This document shows positions 6,262 through 59,342 of a stretch of 64,000 bases of DNA, in pieces. Source of the DNA: an uncultured Bacteroidales bacterium (GTDB lineage: Bacteria; Bacteroidota; Bacteroidia; Bacteroidales; WCHB1-69); contig CAJOFJ010000009.1 of NCBI GenBank assembly GCA_905233625.1, positions 14,492-78,491 of the forward strand, given 5' to 3'. Below the pieces are notes generated by a model. The model made no database searches, was not told where the DNA came from, and saw nothing but the letters and a program-made list of their open reading frames with translations. The translations under genes and the position numbers were made by a program. Each line of letters opens with the position of its first letter. Within the stretch, counting starts at the first letter, position 1.

Positions 6262-6438
6262 GGGACGGGGAGACGCTCGCTGTGCTCGCTCGGGGAGTCA
6301 CTCGCTGCGCTCGTTCGTTAAGTCGTTCACTGCGTTCGCTCGGTTATACGATATCGTATTTCCGTCTTCCCGAGTACACGCAGTGTACGTCTCCACGAAT
6401 GCACGCAGTGCATGTCTCCCCGTATAACCGTATAACCG
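6262..6438. repeat. Palindromic array of GGGGAG(A/T)C-spaced ~25-nt bricks around a perfect ATACGATATCGTAT centre
   Basis: Three tandem units GGGGAGNC+NCTCGCTGNGCTCGNTC sit on the left. Inverted units (…CACGCAGTG…GTCTCC(CC)) sit on the right. The core GTTCGCTCGGTTATACGATATCGT is shared with 13520-13553. Confidence 0.8.
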
Positions 6439-13424: not shown

Positions 13425-13610
13425 GATTCGTTTATACGTTGAGTCGCTCACTTTGTTCGCTCGAGGAGATACTCGCTACGCGAGCTCGGGGAGTCATTCG
13501 CTATGCTCATTCGGGGAGACGCTCACTTTGTTCGCTCGGTTATACGATATCGTTTAACCGTCTCCACGTCTAACCGAATGCACGCAGTGCATGTCTCCAC
13601 GTCTTCCCGT
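13425..13610. repeat. Second copy of the palindromic GGGGAGNC brick element
   Basis: Four left units (gagtcgctcactttgttcgctc, gaggagatactcgctacgcgagctc, ggggagtcattcgctatgctcattc, ggggagacgctcactttgttcgctc), the core ggttatacgatatcgt, and a right arm gaatgcacgcagtgcatgtctcc identical to 6398-6420. It fills the whole gap between two co-directional genes. Confidence 0.8.
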
Positions 13611-23340: not shown

Positions 23341-23544
23341 AGGGATTAGTTTTTAGTGATTAGAGTTTAGTGTTTAGAGTTTACGGTTTAGTTGGGGGAG
23401 TTTAGTACTTCGTACTCAAGGGAAGTTTAAATTCCCCTTCTTCAAGAAGGGGTGGCCGAAGGCCGGGGTAGTGACGTAAGTGTAATTCAAAATTCAAAGT
23501 TCAAAATTCAAGAATGTAGGGACGCAATTTATTGCGTCCGTCTG
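23341..23544. repeat. 204-bp hairpin and word-repeat cluster inserted between murE and mraY
   Basis: TTAGNGN heptamers (23341-23395), gtac-ttcg-gtac, gggaa…ttccc, ccccttc-ttcaa-gaagggg, ggcc-gaa-ggcc, GGGGTAGTGACGTAAG, TTCAAAR heptamers (23484-23514) and ggacgcaat-tt-attgcgtcc. Confidence 0.8.
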
Positions 23545-27637: not shown

Positions 27638-28573
27638 TTATTTTTTCTCTGCCACTCTTAATTTTGCGCTGCGGGCGCGCGGGTTCACAGCTATTTCGTC
27701 TTCGTCGGGAGTGATGGCTTTGCGGGTAATCAGCGTGAACGGGGTCATCAGGTTGCCGAAGAAGTCTTTTTCGGCCTCGCCCTCGAACTTGCCGGATCGC
27801 ATGAAGTTCTTGACCAAGCGGTCTTCCAGCGAATGGTAGGCGATGACGACGAGGCGTCCGCCGGGTTTCAGGCACTCAACGCTCTGGCTCAGAAATTCCT
27901 TCAACACCGACATTTCGTCGTTCACTTCAATTCTGATGGCTTGGAACAGCTGCGACAGCACCTTGTTTTCCTTGTCTCTGGGCAGTAGGGGGTTCACAGC
28001 GGCGACAAGCTGGGCGGTGGTGGCAATTTCGGCTTTCTCGCGCTCATTCACAATTTGACGTGCCAGTTGTTTGCCGTTGGGCAGCTCACCGTAGGTGTAG
28101 AAAATGGAAGCCAGACGTTCGGGGGCATAACCGTTGATAATCTCGCGTGCGGAAACCCCTTTCTGCTGGTTCATGCGCATGTCCAGAGCTCCGTCGAAAC
28201 GGTGCGAAAAGCCACGTTCTGCGGTGTCGAACTGGTACGACGACACCCCAAGATCTGCCAAGATACCGTCGGCGGGACAGCATTTGTAGTACTGGGCGAA
28301 TTTTTTGAGGTGGCGGAAGTTGCTGGGAACAAATTGGAAACGCTCGTCGTCAATAATATTACTATGGGCGTCAGGGTCCTGGTCGAAAGCCAGCAAACGG
28401 CCGTCGGGGGACAGTGTTTCCAAAATTTTCCGGGAATGGCCGCCACCGCCAAAGGTGACATCGATATACAGACCGGAAGGGTTAGTGACAAGCTGCTGGA
28501 TGGATTCCGCAAGGAGGACCGGATTATGGTAACTCATTGGTTTCCTCCTTTCGCGCAGTGTTAAATTGGCCAA
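27638..28573 (-). CDS. rsmH: 16S rRNA (cytosine1402-N4)-methyltransferase
   Basis: HNPVLL…DVTFGGGGHS…DLGVSS…SLEDR motifs. An alternative start is the ATG at 28537 (MSYHNPVL). Confidence 0.9.
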   Translation of the reverse strand: MANLTLRERRKPMSYHNPVLLAESIQQLVTNPSGLYIDVTFGGGGHSRKILETLSPDGRLLAFDQDPDAHSNIIDDERFQFVPSNFRHLKKFAQYYKCCPADGILADLGVSSYQFDTAERGFSHRFDGALDMRMNQQKGVSAREIINGYAPERLASIFYTYGELPNGKQLARQIVNEREKAEIATTAQLVAAVNPLLPRDKENKVLSQLFQAIRIEVNDEMSVLKEFLSQSVECLKPGGRLVVIAYHSLEDRLVKNFMRSGKFEGEAEKDFFGNLMTPFTLITRKAITPDEDEIAVNPRARSAKLRVAEKK

Positions 28574-29012
28574 GGTGGATGGCCTCGTTCAACTTGTTCA
28601 ATTCTTCTGGGGTCATGTCGAACTCTTTGTGGTATTCCTCGCTGTTCCACAGCTCGATCTTGCCGTTGTCAAGAATCAAAACCACTTCACGGTCAATATG
28701 ATACAGCTCCATGAAGGGCTTGGGAATCACGAGACGGTCTTGCGAGTCACATTCCACAAAGGTATTGCGCGTAAGAAATGCGTTGCGGTATTTCTTGATA
28801 GCTATGATGTTTCTGTCCAAAGAGTTGAGATAGTCCATCTGTTGCTGATAAGCCTTGACGGTCCATAGGGCAATATGATTACCGAAACCGGGGGTGACCA
28901 CAAAACTCTTGCGGTCGTCTTCGGCCAACGACTTGAGCAGCATGGTGGGCAATTTGATACGCCCATGCTTCTCAATGGCAACTTCCCAATAACCGTAATC
29001 GAATGCAGACAT
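28524..29012 (-). CDS. mraZ: Division/cell wall cluster transcriptional regulator MraZ
   Basis: 162 aa, first gene of the dcw cluster. Two SpoVT/AbrB-like halves (KHGRIKLP and SQDRLVIP). Confidence 0.8.
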   Translation of the reverse strand: MSAFDYGYWEVAIEKHGRIKLPTMLLKSLAEDDRKSFVVTPGFGNHIALWTVKAYQQQMDYLNSLDRNIIAIKKYRNAFLTRNTFVECDSQDRLVIPKPFMELYHIDREVVLILDNGKIELWNSEEYHKEFDMTPEELNKLNEAIHLGQFNTARKEETNELP

Positions 29013-29038
29013 CTTTTTTTCTTTGGTTTTATCAATGG

Positions 29039-29046
29039 CAAAAATA
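29039..29046 (-). promoter_or_regulatory. -7 box TATTTTTG (minus strand) upstream of mraZ
   Basis: Plus strand reads caaaaata, 27 nt from the mraZ start. Confidence 0.4.
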
Positions 29047-29352
29047 TAGAAAATAATAATAGGTTTTCCACATTTTTATATTTTTGATTGAAAAAAGATG
29101 AAAAATAGATTTAACTTATTGAAAATCAGTGTGGAAAAAAATGGCAAAAATTTTTAGTCAATGTATAAATTTGTCTAAAATATTGATTTTCAGCATATAA
29201 ATTCCAATTTTTGTAATTAAATATAAAAAGCTGTAAATCAATAATATATAATAATAAAAAGGATGTAATTCCAAAATTTTCCACAGAAAGATGTTGATTT
29301 TCGGATAAATTTGGAAAAAAAAGGAAATTTTGGGAGAAAAAAGGAGTTATTA

Positions 29353-29376
29353 ACAAAAAAACGACCCGAAGGTCGT
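29353..29376 (-). terminator. Canonical rho-independent terminator on the minus strand (ACGACC-UUCG-GGUCGU followed by U8)
   Basis: Minus strand reads cgacgaccttcgggtcgttttttttg. No annotated minus-strand gene lies upstream of it for 1.5 kb. Confidence 0.65.
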
Positions 29377-29399
29377 CGTGCTTTCCACAGGGGAATGTT

Positions 29400-29477
29400 G
29401 ATTTAGGGATTAGGGGTCAGGGGTTAGGGGACAGGGGACAGAATAATGAATTCAAAGTTCAAGATTCAAAATTCAAC
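29400..29477 (+). repeat. TNAGGGG heptamer array (G-quadruplex motif 29406-29437) followed by a TTCAARR heptamer array
   Basis: ggg-atta-gggg-tca-gggg-tta-gggg-aca-gggg, then gaattcaaagttcaagattcaaaattcaac. Confidence 0.85.
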
Positions 29478-29717
29478 TGAAAAATTGCACAGATATTGAA
29501 TTCTGGATTCAAATCAGTATTAATGCGCCAATTACAGTCTGCTGAGCCAGATGCCGAGGAAACGGTCATAAACAATGTATTTGTCAGGCAATCTTTCATA
29601 TTTCAGACACTATTAATTTTATTTTCATTGCGTAAATTACGCTACGTAATTCCGTAATGAAAATGCACAAAAAATTATTGAAATGCAAAAAAAAAAAGTT
29701 TTTGACATATCAGTATT

Positions 29718-29725
29718 CAAAAATA
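29718..29725 (-). promoter_or_regulatory. -7 box TATTTTTG (minus strand), back-to-back with the plus-strand box at 29732
   Basis: Plus strand reads caaaaata. It would drive a ~355-nt minus-strand transcript ending at the 29353-29376 terminator. Confidence 0.4.
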
Positions 29726-29731
29726 ATGTTG

Positions 29732-29739
29732 TATGTTTG
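29732..29739 (+). promoter_or_regulatory. -7 box TATGTTTG in the context TTGTATGTTTGCAG
   Basis: The extended context matches the promoters at 5291 and 10121. Confidence 0.5.
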
Positions 29740-29744
29740 CAGAC

Positions 29745-30011
29745 GAAAAACATAGAAATGAATAGTAACGAAAATAGAACGCCTATGAGTAAATCCGCAT
29801 AATTCAGTTATGCACATCATAGAATAAGAAAAAGCGAAGTAGCTTGTACACTGGTTATTCTGAAACTTGGACACTTTCAGTTAATCTACCCAGAGTAAAG
29901 CAACGACGTTCCCGCCAACTGGCGTGGGCTTTACTCGTTGTAATTGGGTAGATTAGGTAGTCCAAGACCTCAGAATAGCCAATGAAAGCGAAAAAGTGCC
30001 ACGCTTTTTTT
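29745..30011 (+). ncRNA. Candidate structured noncoding RNA (or 5' leader of the 30111 gene) with a 128-nt nested hairpin; family unrecognised
   Basis: Promoter at 29732. Stems: 29853-29872/29960-29980, 29882-29892/29945-29955, 29893-29901/29928-29936, and an apical ccgcc-aact-ggcg(t)gg. A smaller hairpin tgcataa-ttcag-ttatgca lies at ~29797-29815. A weak stem plus T7 sits at 29985-30011. There is no ORF of 60 aa or more. Confidence 0.45.
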
Positions 30012-30110
30012 GTGTGCATAAATATCCTTCAGCTGGCACAAAACAATAATCAAATTTAATTTACCAAAACCGATGGAGCCGGATGGGATATAACGCGGCT
30101 GAAAAAAAGT

Positions 30111-30530
30111 ATGAAGAAAATAATTTTTTTAGGAATAGTTTGTTGTATGATTCTGAGTTCTTTTAAAGCAAATGCAAACCAAGTTACTGTTTATAATGAA
30201 GTAAACGACACGATTTGTTTCCAAGTGCTAGAAGTTAATAGTCGGACAATGGAAGTCCTTTTGTATGCTACTAGTACTGTGGATGAATTTTGTAAGGTGT
30301 TATCTAGAAAAGAGGTATCAGTGCCAATTGGTTTAATGTGTGCATTCGCAGGAGCAGGTAATCCAGTATGTTATGTTTATGGTGCTGTTATGGCAGCTTG
30401 TGCAATAAATGGTGCGGTGAAATTGGCAATAGAAGGTGATTTTACCAATGCGATATTAGAATCGGTTTCGGCAGGAACAAAAGTCTATAAGATGAGTAAG
30501 GTTAATACGTCAACGTATAAAATAGAATAA
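30111..30530 (+). CDS. Small secreted or membrane-associated hypothetical protein
   Basis: 139 aa. Signal peptide MKKIIFLGIVCCMILSSFKANA and a Gly/Ala/Cys-rich hydrophobic segment IGLMCAFAGAGNPVCYVYGAVMAACAINGAV. Confidence 0.55.
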   Translation: MKKIIFLGIVCCMILSSFKANANQVTVYNEVNDTICFQVLEVNSRTMEVLLYATSTVDEFCKVLSRKEVSVPIGLMCAFAGAGNPVCYVYGAVMAACAINGAVKLAIEGDFTNAILESVSAGTKVYKMSKVNTSTYKIE

Positions 30531-30793
30531 CTTAGGATAACCTAGGAATGTGCTTGTTATGTTGTGGTTGATTCCACAAATTTAAAAACTATTTATTAGG
30601 AGAGTGTTTTTTACACACCCTCCTATTTTATTATTATACCACTCCATTCCACTGGCAATGAAATAGTATTGGGATTTTGTGAAAGATTGATACGTCTCAA
30701 AATGGGTTGGGAAGTCAACGTATGTAATGGCTTTTGAGATGTAGTTAGGAGATATTTATTTCAATAGTATTTCACTATTGAACAATATTTAAC

Positions 30794-30847
30794 GTTGAGT
30801 TTTTTCCAAAACTATCAATTTTTGGGTGGTTTTGGAAAAAACTCAAC
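30794..30847. terminator. Perfect 19-bp inverted repeat hairpin downstream of the ATPase gene
   Basis: gttgagttttttccaaaac (30794-30812) pairs with gttttggaaaaaactcaac (30829-30847), followed by ttttta on the plus strand. Confidence 0.55.
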
Positions 30848-30876
30848 TTTTTATAGCAAACAGATAAACGGATGTT

Positions 30877-32313
30877 TTATAGGAATAAGTCGTTCATGTT
30901 CAGTGACTTCTGAACACGGCTGCTATATGCGTTGGGGTGAAGACCAAATGTGGTGATGAAGGTGAGATGGATATTCCTTTTATTTTTAGTCAGCTCGCGA
31001 ACTTTGTCAGCCCGCTGGCGCAACTTCTCTTCATAATTCTTGTCGATGACAAATTCCTTATTGGCAAATTTGATTTCGCAGAGATTAAGAACCCTGTCGG
31101 CACGGTCAATGAGCAGGTCAATCTGAGAACCTTGACTCTGGTCATTATTAGGGATTATCAGTGAGGATATGCTTGTCTGCACTCCTGCTATGCCCAAGGC
31201 AGCCTTGATTTGGCGGATGTGGACAAAGCATACCTCTTCGAAAGCGAAACCTTGCCACGAGTATATGGAGGGAGATGTAATGGTGTTTTGCCAATATGAC
31301 TCATCTGAGATGTTTTTTTTGCCTATGAAATTAAGATGAAAGAGACAGAAGTTGTCGACCAGTTTGTAATATGTTTCGCGTTTTTCATTCAAGGGGGTGA
31401 AGGGAACGATAAAATCACTGTTGACAAGGGAAGCCAATGTTTTGGTTAAAGTGCCGCCAGAGGCATGACCTGTTTTCTGTGCTATCTCTTTGCGTGTGAA
31501 GCCATAACGTCGTGTTGCCAATAAGCGTACTATCTCTTTAGAATCATTATTGTCGCCAAACAATGAGGTGAAAAGTCGATCGTACTCATCGTGCAGAGGA
31601 GCATTGGAAGCAAAAAACAAACGGTCGATATTTTGGGCAAGAGAGAAACCGGGTCGGAAATAATTCATATAATAAGGAATCCCGCCAATAGCCATATAGC
31701 TTTGAATGATGTCGTAGCGGTCTAGTTCTATGCCTTTGTGTTTGTAGAACATCTCGCATTCGTTCAAAGTGAATTGAGACAACTTCATATTATAGGTTGT
31801 ACGTCCGTATAGTCCGCCTTTGTTGTTCAAGAGCTTGTCTTTCATCCATGAGGTGGCTGAACCGCAAACAATGAAAAGCAAGTTTGGACGAGAGGATGCC
31901 CAACCATTCCAGAAATGTTCAAAAGCAGTGATGAAGCCAGATCTAGGAGTATCCATCCAAGGAAGCTCGTCAAGAAAAACCACTTGTCTCTCTGTGGTGG
32001 AATTCTCCTCAAGTAGTTTGCGCAACATTCGGAACGCTTCTGGCCACGAGGCTGGACAAGCGGTTTCATTTAGTCCGTATTCGCGCAAGGAAACATAAAA
32101 CTCATCCAATTGGCGTTTTAAGAGTTGCGTTCCTGAAATCTCTAAAGGAGAAACTCCTGTGTGATAGAATGCGAATTCGTTATGGAAAAATTCTCTGATA
32201 AGAAATGTTTTCCCAACCCTTCTGCGGCCATATACAGCTACCAATTCAGGTGAGGTGCTCTCATAAAGTCTCTGTAATTCAGCTTTTTCGTATGCTCGTC
32301 CAATAATTTCCAT
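30877..32313 (-). CDS. AAA-type ATP-binding protein (archaeal-ATPase-like with a DUF234-type C-terminus)
   Basis: The start is set at the ATG at 32313 (MEIIGRAYEKAELQ), 29 nt downstream of a -7 box. Walker A GRRRVGKT and Walker B VVFLDELPW. Confidence 0.75.
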   Translation of the reverse strand: MEIIGRAYEKAELQRLYESTSPELVAVYGRRRVGKTFLIREFFHNEFAFYHTGVSPLEISGTQLLKRQLDEFYVSLREYGLNETACPASWPEAFRMLRKLLEENSTTERQVVFLDELPWMDTPRSGFITAFEHFWNGWASSRPNLLFIVCGSATSWMKDKLLNNKGGLYGRTTYNMKLSQFTLNECEMFYKHKGIELDRYDIIQSYMAIGGIPYYMNYFRPGFSLAQNIDRLFFASNAPLHDEYDRLFTSLFGDNNDSKEIVRLLATRRYGFTRKEIAQKTGHASGGTLTKTLASLVNSDFIVPFTPLNEKRETYYKLVDNFCLFHLNFIGKKNISDESYWQNTITSPSIYSWQGFAFEEVCFVHIRQIKAALGIAGVQTSISSLIIPNNDQSQGSQIDLLIDRADRVLNLCEIKFANKEFVIDKNYEEKLRQRADKVRELTKNKRNIHLTFITTFGLHPNAYSSRVQKSLNMNDLFL

Positions 32314-32341
32314 AGCTCTTGATTTATATTTAATACAGCCG

Positions 32342-32349
32342 CAAAGATA
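32342..32349 (-). promoter_or_regulatory. -7 box TATCTTTG (minus strand) for the ATPase gene
   Basis: Plus strand reads caaagata. This supports the 32313 start rather than 32394. Confidence 0.5.
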
Positions 32350-32526
32350 CAAATTATTATTGAAACGGCTGAATAAAAAATTATATTCAGCCAAATTTAT
32401 ATATTTTAGGTGTGATTTGGCTGAATAAGCAATAAAAATGACTTTGCCGGAAAAGAATTGACAGAATTTGGAAGATAAAACTAAAGTGGGTTACATTGTT
32501 TTGTTCGTAATCCTGAAAGCGGAAAC

Positions 32527-32856
32527 CTAGAACGCCACCATTTTCAGGTATTCGACGAGCACGGCGGCGGCGACGGCACCGATAGCGACGGTGAGCAGAT
32601 CGCGCTTGCGCCACGACATGATAAGTGCTACCACCGTGGCAACCACACCCGAGGTGAGGCTCTTGGTGGAATAGATGACATCGGGGAAGGTCATGGCAGC
32701 CAGCACGCAGAAGGGAATGTAGAACATGAAGTCCTTGAACCAGCGGTTCTCTAATTTGCGGTGGAACACAGCCATTGGTGTCACCCTGATGAAATAGGTG
32801 GTCAATGCCATGACTGCCAGCATGATGCCTGCGGTGGAGAAGGTGAACAAACTCAT
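32527..32856 (-). CDS. azlD: Branched-chain amino acid transport protein AzlD
   Basis: 109-aa hydrophobic protein that overlaps the azlC stop by 4 nt. Confidence 0.8.
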   Translation of the reverse strand: MSLFTFSTAGIMLAVMALTTYFIRVTPMAVFHRKLENRWFKDFMFYIPFCVLAAMTFPDVIYSTKSLTSGVVATVVALIMSWRKRDLLTVAIGAVAAAVLVEYLKMVAF

Positions 32857-33785
32857 CGTGCCACCTCCTTTCTCTCTGCCTCATCGGCAACTTCGTTGGT
32901 CTTGAAGAAAGTGGCGCAGAGGGAGGCCGCTCCGATAGCGGAGATGATCAGCGACCAGCCACCGCCATTCTGCGATATTTGGTTGATGCCGGGCACATAT
33001 TTGAATATGCACGACAGGGCCGAGGCAATCAGGATGGCGTAGAATATTTTCTTGTTTGTTTTGGAGGGCGGTACAATGATGGCGATGAACATGCAGTACA
33101 AGGCAATGCCCATGCAGGCCTGTACCATGGCGGGCATCAGCTCGGCGGCAAAAGCGCCCAGCACCGTGCCTAAGGTCCAACCGACAATAGGGCAGGTCAT
33201 CAGGCCTGTGAAGAAACGGAAGCTGACGTCCTCTTTCTCCATGGCAGCCAGCGCAAAAATTTCGTCCGTCACGCCAAAAGCCATGATACAGCGTTTATAG
33301 GTGGGCAGTTTGGGATCTATTTTTTGTGTCAGCGAGAGGCTCATCAAAAAGTAGCGGATGTTCACCACCAGGGTAGTCATGGCCAGCTCGATGGCAGGGG
33401 CACCCCCGGCAATCATGCGGATGCCGGCAAACTGACCGGCGGAGGCCAGGTTGGTGAGGGAGATGAAGACCGCCACCCACGGGTCGAAGCCCATCTGCAC
33501 GGCTACCAAACCAAAAGTGAAGGATACGGGTACATAGCCCAAACCGATGGATTTGCCCAACAATAAGCCTCGCATATAGTCGCTTTGCGGCTGGTTCTTG
33601 CGGGACTTGCGTTTCATGACCTTGAGCAAGCGGGGAAGACGGCGCACAATCAAGAGGTCGTTGACCTGTTCGCGCAAACGCCGGTTGAACTTGTCGCGTC
33701 TCCATTTCATGGCGCGCAAGGTTGCTTTTCGGCGCGAACCGCGTCGGCTGCTTACACTCTTGATTTTTTTATTTTCTTCTACCAC
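32853..33785 (-). CDS. azlC: AzlC family branched-chain amino acid permease component with a ~70-aa highly basic N-terminal extension
   Basis: The core from RGLLLGKSIGLGYVPVSFTFG onward is AzlC-like. The extension MVEENKKIKSVSSRRGSRRKATLRAMKWRRDKFNRRLRE… begins ~40 nt downstream of a -7 box. Confidence 0.75.
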   Translation of the reverse strand: MVEENKKIKSVSSRRGSRRKATLRAMKWRRDKFNRRLREQVNDLLIVRRLPRLLKVMKRKSRKNQPQSDYMRGLLLGKSIGLGYVPVSFTFGLVAVQMGFDPWVAVFISLTNLASAGQFAGIRMIAGGAPAIELAMTTLVVNIRYFLMSLSLTQKIDPKLPTYKRCIMAFGVTDEIFALAAMEKEDVSFRFFTGLMTCPIVGWTLGTVLGAFAAELMPAMVQACMGIALYCMFIAIIVPPSKTNKKIFYAILIASALSCIFKYVPGINQISQNGGGWSLIISAIGAASLCATFFKTNEVADEAERKEVAR

Positions 33786-33845: not shown

Positions 33846-33946
33846 ATGTGCTAATTAACAATGTGCTAATGTGCCAATGATTTTAGGGAATAGGGATTAG
33901 TGGATAGGGGTTGGTATTGAATTTTGAATTCTGAATTTTGAATTCT
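33846..33946. repeat. Mosaic word repeats: GTGCTAAT/GTGCCAATGA, TAGGGAAT/TAGGGATTAG, TTGAATT heptamers
   Basis: atgtgctaattaacaatgtgctaatgtgccaatga…tagggaatagggattagtggatagggg…ttgaattttgaattctgaattttgaattc. Confidence 0.8.
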
Positions 33947-34944: not shown

Positions 34945-34996
34945 GTTGGTCATTTTATTTCTCGCAAAAATACATAAAAAACACACATATTAAAAA

Positions 34997-35077
34997 GACT
35001 CCCCTCGAACACGTAGTGTGAGACTCCCCCTTCATGCGCAGCATGACTCCCCTTGAGCACGCAGTGCGAGACTCCCC
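34997..35077 (-). repeat. ACTCCCC-spaced mini-hairpin brick array (three to four units)
   Basis: gactcccc-tcgaacacgtagtgtgag-actccccc-ttcatgcgcagcatg-actcccc-ttgagcacgcagtgcgag-actcccc. Confidence 0.8.
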
Positions 35078-38903: not shown

Positions 38904-39352
38904 AAAATGTTTTTTGTTTTAACGTGCTGATTATTGGGTTGTTAGTGGCTATAGCGCTCACGATGTCCGCATGTATGACTGCTAAAAAGAAGGCTGAAAT
39001 GGCGCAGAATAAGCCGTTAGTGGATACGTATTGGGTATTAAAATCTGTTAAAGGTGAAGATATTCCCAAGTGTATTATTACTCCCAATATTGTATTTCAT
39101 GCCGACGGAAAATTCACAGGCAATCTGGGTTGTAATATCTTTTATGGTAATTATTATTCAGGCAAGAAGAAAATCAGAATGGAATTTGAGGGAGCGACCA
39201 AAAAGTTGTGTGAGAATATGAAAGTGGAGAAGCTGTTTCTTCAACAGCTGCATAGTGAGTTCAGGCAATACGAAATCGACAAAGATGTCCTGATCCTGAA
39301 AGACAAGGATGGAGAAGTGATGCGCTTCTTCGCCGGCGTAAAACCGGAATAG
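38900..39352 (+). CDS. META domain-containing lipoprotein (HslJ-like)
   Basis: Lipobox LTMSAC, W.L pattern and GNLGCN motif. Confidence 0.7.
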   Translation: MKNVFCFNVLIIGLLVAIALTMSACMTAKKKAEMAQNKPLVDTYWVLKSVKGEDIPKCIITPNIVFHADGKFTGNLGCNIFYGNYYSGKKKIRMEFEGATKKLCENMKVEKLFLQQLHSEFRQYEIDKDVLILKDKDGEVMRFFAGVKPE

Positions 39353-39497
39353 GGAATAGTGATTAGGGGATAGGGATTAGTGATTAGAATTTAGGGGGTA
39401 ATATGTTATTATGGACTACAATGTGGAATAGTTGTAACTAATTGTCTAACCACTAACCACTAATTCCTAATCACTATTCACTAATCACTAATCCCTA
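39350..39497. repeat. TAGGGAN/TAGTGAT heptamer array and its inverted copy, forming a long hairpin between convergent genes
   Basis: Left arm tagggaatagtgattaggggatagggattagtgattag. Right arm ctaatcactattcactaatcactaatcccta. The outermost TAG/cta triplets are the stop codons of the two flanking genes. Confidence 0.85.
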
Positions 39498-55790: not shown

Positions 55791-55920
55791 TTTAATGTGC
55801 CAATGAGTTAATATGCTAATGTGCCAATGAATAATTCAAAATTCAAAGTTCAAGATTCAGAATATGTAACATATTGTCTATTTTTGAATTCTGAATTTTG
55901 AATTCTGAATTTTGAATTTC
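55791..55920. repeat. GTGCCAATGA words plus a TTCAAAR heptamer array and its inverted copy (hairpin) in a divergent promoter region
   Basis: Left arm aattcaaaattcaaagttcaagattcagaat (55834-55863). Right arm tttttgaattctgaattttgaattctgaattttgaattt (55881-55919). Confidence 0.8.
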
Positions 55921-59170: not shown

Positions 59171-59342
59171 TAGGGATTAGGTGTTAGGGATCAGGGGTTA
59201 GTCATTAAGAATTCAAAATTCAAAGTTCAAAATTCATTATCCTATAATCTTGTAATCATAAAAACTCCCCTCGAGCACAAAGTGCGAGACTCCCCTTTGG
59301 ATGCGTGCATCCAACTCCCCTCGAACGAAGTGAGACTCCCCC
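59171..59342. repeat. Composite repeat inserted between moxR and the DUF58 gene: TAGGGAT heptamers, TTCAAAR heptamers, ATCCTATAATCTTGTAATCA leader, ACTCCCC bricks
   Basis: All four repeat vocabularies occur in series. 59237-59305 is a near copy of 9933-10005. Confidence 0.85.

Follow-up and report, generated by a model that had tools for sequence, protein, structure and literature searches.

The window analysed here is a stretch of 64,000 nucleotides (nt) from contig CAJOFJ010000009.1 of an uncultured Bacteroidales bacterium (GenBank assembly GCA_905233625.1). It contains an intergenic gap of 1.1 kb (29013-30110), which separates mraZ, the first gene of the dcw cluster (28524-29012, minus strand), on its left from an open reading frame (ORF) of 139 amino acids (aa) with an N-terminal signal peptide (30111-30530, plus strand). 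The right part of the gap carries a conserved RNA domain on the plus strand (29757-30040), which was delimited by nhmmer, folding and family alignment and comprises a 5' block, a hairpin H1, a closed rod, a U-tract and a downstream GGCAC strand. An earlier reading of this DNA, hereafter the original prediction, had placed two noncoding transcripts in the gap, running away from each other from back-to-back promoters; only the rightward one stood up to the analysis. Comparison of its homologues suggests that the rightward RNA probably belongs to a previously uncatalogued structured leader RNA family of uncultured rumen, horse-gut and human-gut Bacteroidales. Most likely, it is a cis-acting 5' leader of exported-protein genes, and the 139-aa ORF would be the gene served in the window.

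A family of related RNAs in uncultured Bacteroidales

The family was collected from a species-representative genome collection with the 18-mer GGGCTTTACTCGTTGTAA, which lies in the apex of the rod (window 29926-29943). At least 61 stretches matched, 57 of them real members; the other four, from other taxa, matched by chance. A scan of metagenomes, for which the anchor was placed away from the apex, provides a small sample unbiased with respect to this part; it listed five stretches, four of them real, and adds at least four divergent members (L080, L081, L083, and L084; loci of relatives carry L numbers). The family comprises at least 59 copies in at least about 49 species-level Bacteroidales metagenome-assembled genomes (MAGs) from rumen, horse faeces, and human gut, with Candidatus Limimorpha among the carriers. 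One to three copies were counted per genome, several genomes having two or three; both the copy number and the taxonomic range are lower bounds. The window locus shares 97% identity with L047, from the sheep rumen MAG RGIG6710, which has a further copy, L038, elsewhere. A family profile used with nhmmer recovered a single copy in the 64-kb window (29757-30025, E=4.8e-83) and detected no additional, diverged copies in the family loci retrieved.

We then compared the family with catalogued RNAs. Rfam 15 (4227 covariance models), applied to the whole window, returned only a tRNA elsewhere. At E<=10, the region 29000-30300 gave four chance-level matches with 17-20 bits, compared to thresholds of 45-100, and none of the models matched the rod in 33 further family loci (34 members in all). 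This outcome agrees with the original prediction, which had proposed the Rfam scan as a check and had recognised neither 6S RNA, signal recognition particle (SRP) RNA, transfer-messenger RNA, RNase P, a retron nor a known riboswitch. The sequence was not found in searchable paper text, and the first 200 of the 408 supplementary files of a human-microbiome structured-RNA survey gave no match. The rod was not recovered by BLAST from phage or plasmid collections, nor from viral contigs by either of two pattern scans; a viral scan for the loop of the pre-start hairpin described below yielded only chance matches inside coding sequence.

Covariation and strand asymmetry

The segment 29740-30015 has a minimum free energy of -86 kcal/mol, compared to -55.4±4.7 kcal/mol for shuffled sequences (z=-6.6). 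Similar values were obtained for 29757-30045, with -92.3 kcal/mol and z=-6.4. In the family alignment, conservation extends from approximately 29762 to GGCAC at 30036-30040, which gives a domain of ~280 nt (270-290 nt in the family), of which ~208 nt are closed by an outer helix. The 128-nt rod of the original prediction is real, and its four helices and the T7 run (30005-30011) are all present; the conserved domain is, however, larger than the rod, and its helices span the T7.

RNAalifold predicted 63 pairs for the family alignment, 19 of them with compensatory changes, and a structure-blind mutual-information scan ranked the basal helices of the rod first. At the column pair 29857/29976, for example, the combinations UA (15), GC (11), AU (10), and CG (10) were all encountered. 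When the structure was named explicitly, 96.3% of 3794 cells were standard pairs, and 21 pairs changed on both sides. Cells with double changes numbered 272 compared to 101±8 in shuffled controls, a value reached in none of 500 shuffles, although the members are related by descent, so that such controls overstate the significance. The stronger evidence therefore comes from the variety of pair types at single positions and from controls in which the partners were slid by 1-3 columns, whereupon pairing dropped to 31-47%.

Three observations bear on the strand. The named structure contains 284 G·U or U·G cells compared to 57 A·C or C·A cells, a ratio of ~5:1. The plus strand is predicted to be more stable than its complement in 49 of 55 members, with means of -79.8 and -75.4 kcal/mol, respectively. 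Finally, the length of the closed domain varies between 200 and 213 nt in non-triplet steps. Taken together, these data indicate selection on the plus-strand transcript and point away from both a double-stranded DNA palindrome and a coding sequence. On the question of RNA covariation versus DNA palindromy, raised in the original prediction, they favour RNA.

Compensatory changes are visible even between close relatives. With respect to the window, L003 and L013 show CTTCGAC/GTCGAAG in place of CTTGGAC/GTCCAAG, and GTTCCA/TGGAAC in place of GTGCCA/TGGCAC. The left flank of L003 is 98.6% identical to the window, whereas its rod allele is only 85% identical, and L013 supplies a 3' arm that matches the L003 allele. 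Positions 1-130 of L003 and 1-200 of L013 correspond to window 29729-30040, and the recombination tract coincides with the RNA domain.

Architecture of the RNA domain

The domain starts with a 5' block of conserved columns, TAGTAACGAAA ... GCCTATGAG (29762-29796), whose family form is TAACnAAA...GCCUAUGAG. A 14-codon mini-ORF noted earlier at 29758-29802 is indeed present; of it, only the internal ATG within CCTATGAG (29782-29789) is conserved. We rejected a conserved peptide, as nothing but the ATG within CCUAUGAG is retained, the 1-5 codons after it being variable. The sequence CUAUG (29783-29787) could pair with CAUAG (29818-29822), and one subgroup has CCAAUG/CAUUG instead; this helix is tentative, with weak support that depends on the alignment. 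Pairing of the 5' A-run AAAAAGCG with CGCUUUUU is possible, despite a GCG->GCA change that occurs in eight members without compensation and is neutral for the hairpin P1a described below. The block is followed by H1, GCATAA-TTCAG-TTATGC (29797-29813). Its stem, formerly counted as 7 bp, consists of 6 bp between GCATAA (29797-29802) and TTATGC (29808-29813), and relatives have a hairpin with other stems at this position, e.g., CGCTT/AAGCG or ACGTAA/TTACGT.

The outer closing helix UGCACAU/GUGUGCA (29811-29817/30012-30018) has its 3' strand directly after the U-tract. Its seven pairs are formed in 97.9% of cells, and three of them show compensatory changes. It encloses a highly conserved, purine-rich bulge, CAUAGAAUAAG (29818-29828), and the hairpin P1a, AAGC-GAAGUA-GCUU (29832-29845), which is paired in 100% of cells and replaced by AGCG-UUU-CGCU in the divergent members L080 and L081. 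The rod itself (29852-29981) is built from the helices 29852-29863/29970-29981, 29866-29872/29960-29966, and 29883-29892/29945-29954 plus the apex; 16 pairs of the three helices carry compensatory changes. Its largest internal loops are located near the base and not at the centre. Antisense ORFs across the rod were dismissed as by-products of the palindrome.

The apex (29893-29944) is the most conserved sequence and allows two mutually exclusive pairings. One, proposed originally, consists of GAGUAAAGC/GCUUUACUC plus CCCGCC/GGCGUGGG. The other is continuous and consists of GCAAC/GUUGU, GG/UU, GCUC/GGGC, and CGCC/GGCG. In the window, their calculated energies are -31.3 and -30.4 kcal/mol, a difference of 0.9, and substitutions in the 5' strand keep both pairings in 99-100% of cells. 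L084 shows a double change from GCAAC/GUUGU to GCGAC/GUCGU, and both L084 and L036 favour the continuous form. A two-state apex is thus a possible reading of the alignment.

The rod is followed by a weak local hairpin, GAAAGCG/CGCUUUU, and the U7 tract (29984-30011, T-run at 30005-30011), with -7.2 kcal/mol and z=-1.65. All aligned members have a U-tract of 5-9 U, and the hairpin together with U7 is possibly a weak or conditional terminator. A further helix, GUGCCA/UGGCAC (29996-30001/30034-30039), bridges the U-tract, forms a pseudoknot with the local hairpin and crosses the outer helix as well. It occurs in the compensatory forms GCACC/GGUGC in L025 and GUUCCA/UGGAAC in L013, and a GGCAC-like strand was found in 37 of 40 distinct spacers between RNA and ORF. 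As conserved helices enclose the T7, the latter is not simply the 3' end of the RNA.

Close to the downstream gene lies a pre-start module (30066-30100). It consists of AAAACCGAUG and the hairpin AGCCG-GAUGGGAUAUAACG-CGGCU (30077-30100), approximately 12 nt before the ATG. We counted 46 instances of the hairpin on the rod strand in family loci, and the stem variants UGCCG/CGGCA, AGCCG/CGGCU, UCCCA/UGGGA, and AGUCG/CGACA preserve the pairing. The module, with the loop AUGGGAUAUAAC, also recurs without a rod before successive genes downstream of the rod, namely in L063 (three copies), L073/L076 (three), L069 (two), L074 (two), L078, L056, and L023. The result is arrays of small exported-protein genes, each with the same short element. 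There is one rod per array, not one per gene.

Promoters and flanking genes

Both TAnnTTTG boxes of the original prediction are present, facing away from each other at 29718-29725 (minus strand) and 29732-29739 (plus strand). The plus-strand box, TATGTTTG, matches this motif, the -7 element of Bacteroidetes housekeeping promoters, exactly. The motif occurs 62 times in the window compared to 47±6.5 expected, which is near chance frequency, so that a box alone is weak evidence. The plus box gains support from its conserved position: in 24 of 53 loci, the window included, TAnnTTTG precedes the AAAAGCG block by 87-116 nt, and the surrounding TTGTAnnTTTGCAG context is conserved. We refer to these copies as class P, with a putative promoter of their own.

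The remaining copies start approximately 0-25 nt after the stop codon of a gene on the same strand. These upstream genes include tdh of the kbl-tdh operon (14-19 species), HepT or PIN toxin genes, DUF2442 genes, and mreB-like or mutase genes. HepT/MNT lies directly upstream on the same strand in L019, L026, L034, L036, L037, L046, and L081, PIN in L024, L038, L052, L063, L071, and L075, and DUF2442 in L017. Two RNA-led units separated by 2.7-3.6 kb are found in L026 and L078, where tdh is followed by RNA, lipoprotein, MNT-HepT, and again RNA.

Downstream, the arrangement is uniform. In 52 of 56 evaluable copies, an ORF of at least 60 aa on the same strand starts 110-260 nt after the anchor, i.e., ~60-115 nt after the U-tract, and the divergent metagenome members show the same order of RNA and ORF. 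None of the 40 distinct spacers between RNA and ORF contains a TAnnTTTG box. These two counts are in line with the original suggestion that the RNA could be the leader of the promoterless gene at 30111. At least 43 of the downstream ORFs begin with a signal peptide or lipobox, and several apparent exceptions are due to starts mis-set at an ATG inside the pre-start hairpin. The encoded proteins fall into many unrelated clusters without a Pfam family, the largest being a lipoprotein family of ~290 aa that often occurs in tandem. Within ±3.5 kb of the family loci, no recombinase gene family recurs.

The 139-aa protein of the window matched no Pfam or PADLOC family. Its homologues, three in total, form only two clusters, and the sole distant one is that of L017, with 62-63% identity. 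The genomic neighbourhood of the L017 gene, which is placed between gcvP/DUF2442 and other genes, is unrelated to that of the window. The same noncoding sequence precedes the gene, with 86% identity over 342 nt and unrelated flanks. The noncoding RNA is hence better conserved between the two loci than the protein encoded downstream.

Two further observations concern the downstream genes and spacers. Unrelated downstream lipoproteins in L025, L026, L043, L067, L070, L074, and others contain PEGA-domain-like motifs (TPSTAKIYIDG, SRPQGADIFW), although Pfam at E<=0.001 gave no PEGA match in them. The Rfam cis-regulatory motif DUF805b was found in the spacer between RNA and ORF of L030 (7369-7401), L049 (4338-4372), and L058 (3652-3686), with 39-43 bits. 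Similar, unscored sequences (GGAG...CCGAAAGCC...AGUGGAGGCAUGAU) are present in L019, L056, L071, and L074.

Comparison with known RNAs and repeats

Of the classes compared, the closest in function is the structured leader or attenuator. The RNA lies on the strand of the downstream ORF, at a short and fixed distance and with no intervening promoter (52/56 copies and 0/40 spacers, respectively), and its conserved secondary structure covaries. With the leaders of attenuation, riboswitch and antitermination systems, it shares a structured region plus U-tract between promoter and ORF, a gene without its own promoter, a conserved core, and alternative pairings, which we observed at the apex and around the U-tract. 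EAR and put, which are processive-antitermination RNAs, were included in this comparison. The RNA differs from such leaders in the weakness of the hairpin before the U-tract, in the conserved helices that enclose the U-tract, and in a rod whose shape and size are unusual for aptamers.

DUF805b (RF02914) is likewise a conserved 5'-untranslated region (UTR) structure on the strand of the downstream gene. It is, however, a 35-nt hairpin, in contrast to the ~280-nt domain with a closed rod of 208 nt described here. The window copy, which carries a different pre-start hairpin, gave no DUF805b match, and Weinberg 2017 contains no text on DUF805.

With 6S RNA the family shares a length of ~200 nt and 5' and 3' parts that pair into a long, interrupted rod. 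Unlike 6S RNA, the rod lacks a large central bubble, is accessory with 1-3 copies, and is tied to a downstream ORF. This assignment was rejected, as neither the 6S nor the 6S-Flavo model matched and the RNA is absent from L002, a relative with an identical MraZ. SRP RNA was rejected for want of an Rfam match, and a retron RNA because no reverse-transcriptase gene is adjacent, the neighbours being signal-peptide genes, ATPase_2, AzlC/D, and MraZ.

The palindromic nature of the rod also invites comparison with DNA elements. An integron attC site is similar in being an imperfect intergenic palindrome among small accessory genes of the same orientation. It was rejected since the base helices of the rod covary freely while its centre is most conserved, the coding strand folds, each array has one rod, and no recombinase lies within ±3.5 kb. 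Enterobacterial repetitive intergenic consensus (ERIC), repetitive extragenic palindromic (REP) and Correia repeats are likewise transcribed from intergenic regions as imperfect palindromes of 100-200 nt; the present family differs by its low copy number, fixed ORF orientation and distance, invariant apex, G·U strand asymmetry, and non-palindromic modules. An ERIC-like repeat or a miniature inverted-repeat transposable element (MITE), which the original prediction had named as the competing possibility, was not supported. The window has one copy in 64 kb, genomes have 1-3 (a lower bound), and the orientation towards the ORF is the same in 52 of the 56 evaluable copies. The outer helix can be read as terminal repeats; a flanking duplication is not visible, and the sole empty site found, in L002, lacks a 3.1-kb segment and not the rod alone. 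Finally, immunity-gene arrays of Bacteroidales (rAID-1) are described as carrying 'repetitive intergenic sequences' (Ross et al., bioRxiv 10.1101/471110). Going by that description, they resemble the present loci in their repeated intergenic elements, nearby toxin-antitoxin modules, and, here, the recurring pre-start hairpin.

A probable cis-acting leader and its alternatives

The fixed position of the ORF, the promoterless spacers and the helices that span the U-tract make a cis-acting leader the most likely reading, and we infer an action on the downstream gene or genes. The higher identity of the RNA than of the downstream protein between the window and L017, and the cis-regulatory motif DUF805b in the corresponding spacer of three relatives, also count in favour of this reading. 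The outer closing helix and the GUGCCA/UGGCAC helix both need sequence 3' of the U-tract and covary, which indicates that the read-through RNA is under selection. Transcription would start at the TAnnTTTG promoter, as in the window, or read through from the gene just upstream. As the downstream gene has no promoter box, it would be expressed only through this RNA, and the domain would act in cis to gate the passage of transcription from upstream into one or more exported-protein genes. A fraction of the polymerases might stop or pause at the weak hairpin and U-tract, and the conserved apex and bulges might bind a protein or a ligand. Such binding could set the amount of full-length mRNA, or else its stability or translatability. 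A more specific version, which we regard as possible though doubtful, holds that the RNA is the 'head' of a modular expression cassette, in which a two-state rod binds a protein or metabolite and gates transcription from any upstream gene into horizontally acquired arrays of exported-protein genes, each with a small pre-start hairpin of its own.

Several points count against the leader. The carriers are all uncultured MAGs, and transcription start, 3' ends and read-through are inferred. The hairpin before the U-tract is weak, with the energy and z-score given above, and the terminator scan did not call it at 29984-30011; regulated termination is thus only one of several possible cis mechanisms. 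A terminator/antiterminator pair linking the apex to the U-tract could not be demonstrated. L003 lacks 94 nt (29729-29822) that include the plus box, the 5' block with the mini-ORF, and H1, and yet keeps the rod. The invariance of the apex is partly an artefact of construction, as most members were collected with the apex 18-mer; for the same reason, covariation cannot be judged there, the 3' strand being fixed by the search pattern in most members. The descent shared by the members, which inflates the shuffle statistics, belongs here as well.

The U-tract of 5-9 U in every aligned member would also suit a stand-alone, trans-acting small RNA or ribonucleoprotein scaffold of ~265 nt that ends at U7, is transcribed from its own promoter or derived from a 3' UTR, and has downstream genes only incidentally or by leak-through. 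Many copies directly follow an upstream gene with no terminator in between and could be its 3' UTR or terminator, and rod length and apex are conserved as in the protein-binding SRP, 6S, and Y RNAs. We nevertheless consider this unlikely, since two compensated helices require sequence past the U-tract, the hairpin before it is weak, the distance and orientation of the ORF are fixed in 52 of 56 copies though the ORFs are unrelated, and none of the 40 spacers has a promoter box. A long, nearly continuous, intercistronic duplex directly behind unrelated upstream genes, with helix sequences that vary while helix lengths are kept, might instead be a passive processing or insulating element, i.e., an RNase III-type site or a stabilising 5' structure that uncouples and protects the mRNA of an acquired gene. 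The conservation of apex, bulge, and 5' block over ~50 species, seen in part with the different anchor too, exceeds the needs of a duplex nuclease, and the additional conserved modules and the pseudoknot-like helix likewise speak against such a role, which appears rather improbable.

An explanation at the DNA level, either a MITE- or ERIC-like palindrome or an attC-like site bounding mobile cassettes, is the least compatible with strand asymmetry, low copy number, and fixed orientation, and we rate it as very improbable. It would account for an imperfect palindrome in accessory contexts near toxin-antitoxin and small orphan genes, sometimes twice within 3 kb, for the same module of RNA plus gene in two unrelated genomic contexts, and for the allele replacement confined to the RNA segment in L003/L013. 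It does not fit the 5:1 excess of G·U over A·C, the better folding of the coding strand, the presence of 1-3 copies per genome (again a lower bound) and of one in 64 kb, the fixed ORF orientation, or the conservation of the centre instead of the base. Neither did we find a recurring recombinase within ±3.5 kb, more than one rod per array, or any copy in the phage, plasmid, and viral collections.

If the leader reading is correct in its gating form, the family would offer a handle on the control of newly acquired envelope functions, and also a defined RNA of 280 nt whose two-state apex can be tested. The RNA sits at hot spots of accessory genes, among them toxin-antitoxin modules, a candidate defence ATPase, and orphan secreted proteins. 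Its link to one functional class, exported proteins and lipoproteins of many unrelated families, is unusually consistent, and within the range covered, again a lower bound, it is restricted to abundant uncultured rumen and gut Bacteroidales. Under the cassette version, the RNA would represent a new class of riboswitch or ribonucleoprotein dedicated to envelope and secreted cargo, and it might also mark the boundary of cassettes that move by some further mechanism. To our knowledge, large and strongly covarying RNAs without an assigned function are rare, and past examples yielded new biochemistry.

The leftward unit

The original prediction also drew a leftward transcript of ~355 nt from the minus box TATTTTTG (29718-29725, read on the minus strand as a TAnnTTTG match) to an intrinsic terminator. 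The terminator is present on the minus strand at 29353-29377, with seven pairs, a UUCG loop, and U7; it was called by the scan and has an energy of -10.2 kcal/mol. Box and strong terminator stand in the right order and orientation, with no credible ORF between them. The claim that the terminator has no gene to serve did not hold. L002, which lacks the inserted segment, keeps it ~220 nt beyond azlD on the same strand, right before the mraZ promoter region. From this comparison, it is the ancestral azlCD terminator or insulator before the mraZ promoter, stranded from azlD by insertion of an accessory segment, and not part of the RNA. For the window, the 'orphan' terminator is thus explained.

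What lies between is lineage-specific filler outside the family (29404-29731), composed of heptamer arrays, the 46-codon ORF, a palindrome, an A-run, and the minus box, and present only in near-identical strains. The minus-strand fold of the leftward 381 nt is no better than that of shuffled sequences (z=-1.5). Much of the filler consists of heptamer arrays (TTAGGGG, AATTCAA) of a kind found genome-wide, whose copy number varies between strains, and the minus box is not conserved in other promoter-bearing copies, boxes of this type being near chance frequency. We found no evidence for a second functional transcript on the left; the leftward unit is best regarded as filler, and a ~355-nt noncoding transcript from it seems scarcely credible.

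The individual landmarks reported earlier for this part, i.e., the palindrome, the G-rich array, and the 46-codon ORF, do exist. The ORF (29459-29599), already called doubtful, was rejected as a gene and removed as a spurious call, as it has a frameshift at 29496 in the 98.6%-identical L003 and no third-position bias. The G-rich array (29403-29437) is one of many intergenic heptamer arrays and not specific to the locus. The 44-nt three-stem palindrome (29621-29664) is real, specific to the lineage and found once in the window; neither of its strands has a U-run.

The accessory segment and its surroundings

Contigs of relatives were gathered by exact-protein look-ups and come from rumen and gut metagenomes. 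One of them, L002 (GCA_024712465.1), encodes a MraZ protein identical to that of the window. It aligns with 90% identity to window 28000-29403 and with 87% to 32527-33000, with only ~190 nt in between, which identifies window 29404-32526 as an accessory segment of 3.1 kb. As judged from this alignment, the segment has come to lie upstream of mraZ, with azlD on one side and the old azlCD terminator on the other. Besides the filler and the RNA, it includes the 139-aa gene, a palindrome, and an ATPase_2/DUF234 gene (30877-32394, minus strand), which matches the PADLOC candidate defence family PDC-S27 (E=6e-196) and has azlD/azlC on its right. The description of the locus as AT-rich and accessory was therefore accurate, given a G+C content of 32% in the gap compared to 46% in the whole window and the absence of the segment from L002.

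A link between the RNA and the PDC-S27 ATPase was rejected, as related ATPases lie near only ~5 of 57 family loci. Between the convergent 139-aa and ATPase genes, a self-complementary match revealed a near-perfect palindrome of 60 nt, GTTGAGTTTTTTCCAAAAC...GTTTTGGAAAAAACTCAAC (30790-30851), which is probably a bidirectional terminator closing the unit. In L008-L012, a different allele of the ATPase gene, with no DNA similarity, has copies of the 60-nt palindrome on both sides.

A direct repeat, TTCCACAG(N4-5)ATGTTGATTT, flanks the azlCD terminator at 29278-29306 and 29382-29410. The boxes GTGGAAAAA, TTGGAAAAAAAA, and TGGGAGAAAAAA are repeated upstream of mraZ (29100-29345), are kept in L002, and are possibly MraZ operator repeats. 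Tandem arrays with a 7-nt period (TTAGGGG, AATTCAA, CTAATCA, AATTAAG, and others) abound in the intergenic regions of this genome; in the window, they occur at 29403-29476, 23346-23511, 33917-33946, 39346-39497, 55833-55919, 59171-59236, and other positions. A tandem repeat with a 25-nt period (CTCGCTGCGCTCGCTCGGGGAGACA-like) was found in intergenic DNA at 6266-6426, 13447-13539, and 34996-35077, and the empty site of L002 (3530-3600) is occupied by a GGGGAGTCTCGCTTCGTTCGA array related to this 25-nt repeat.

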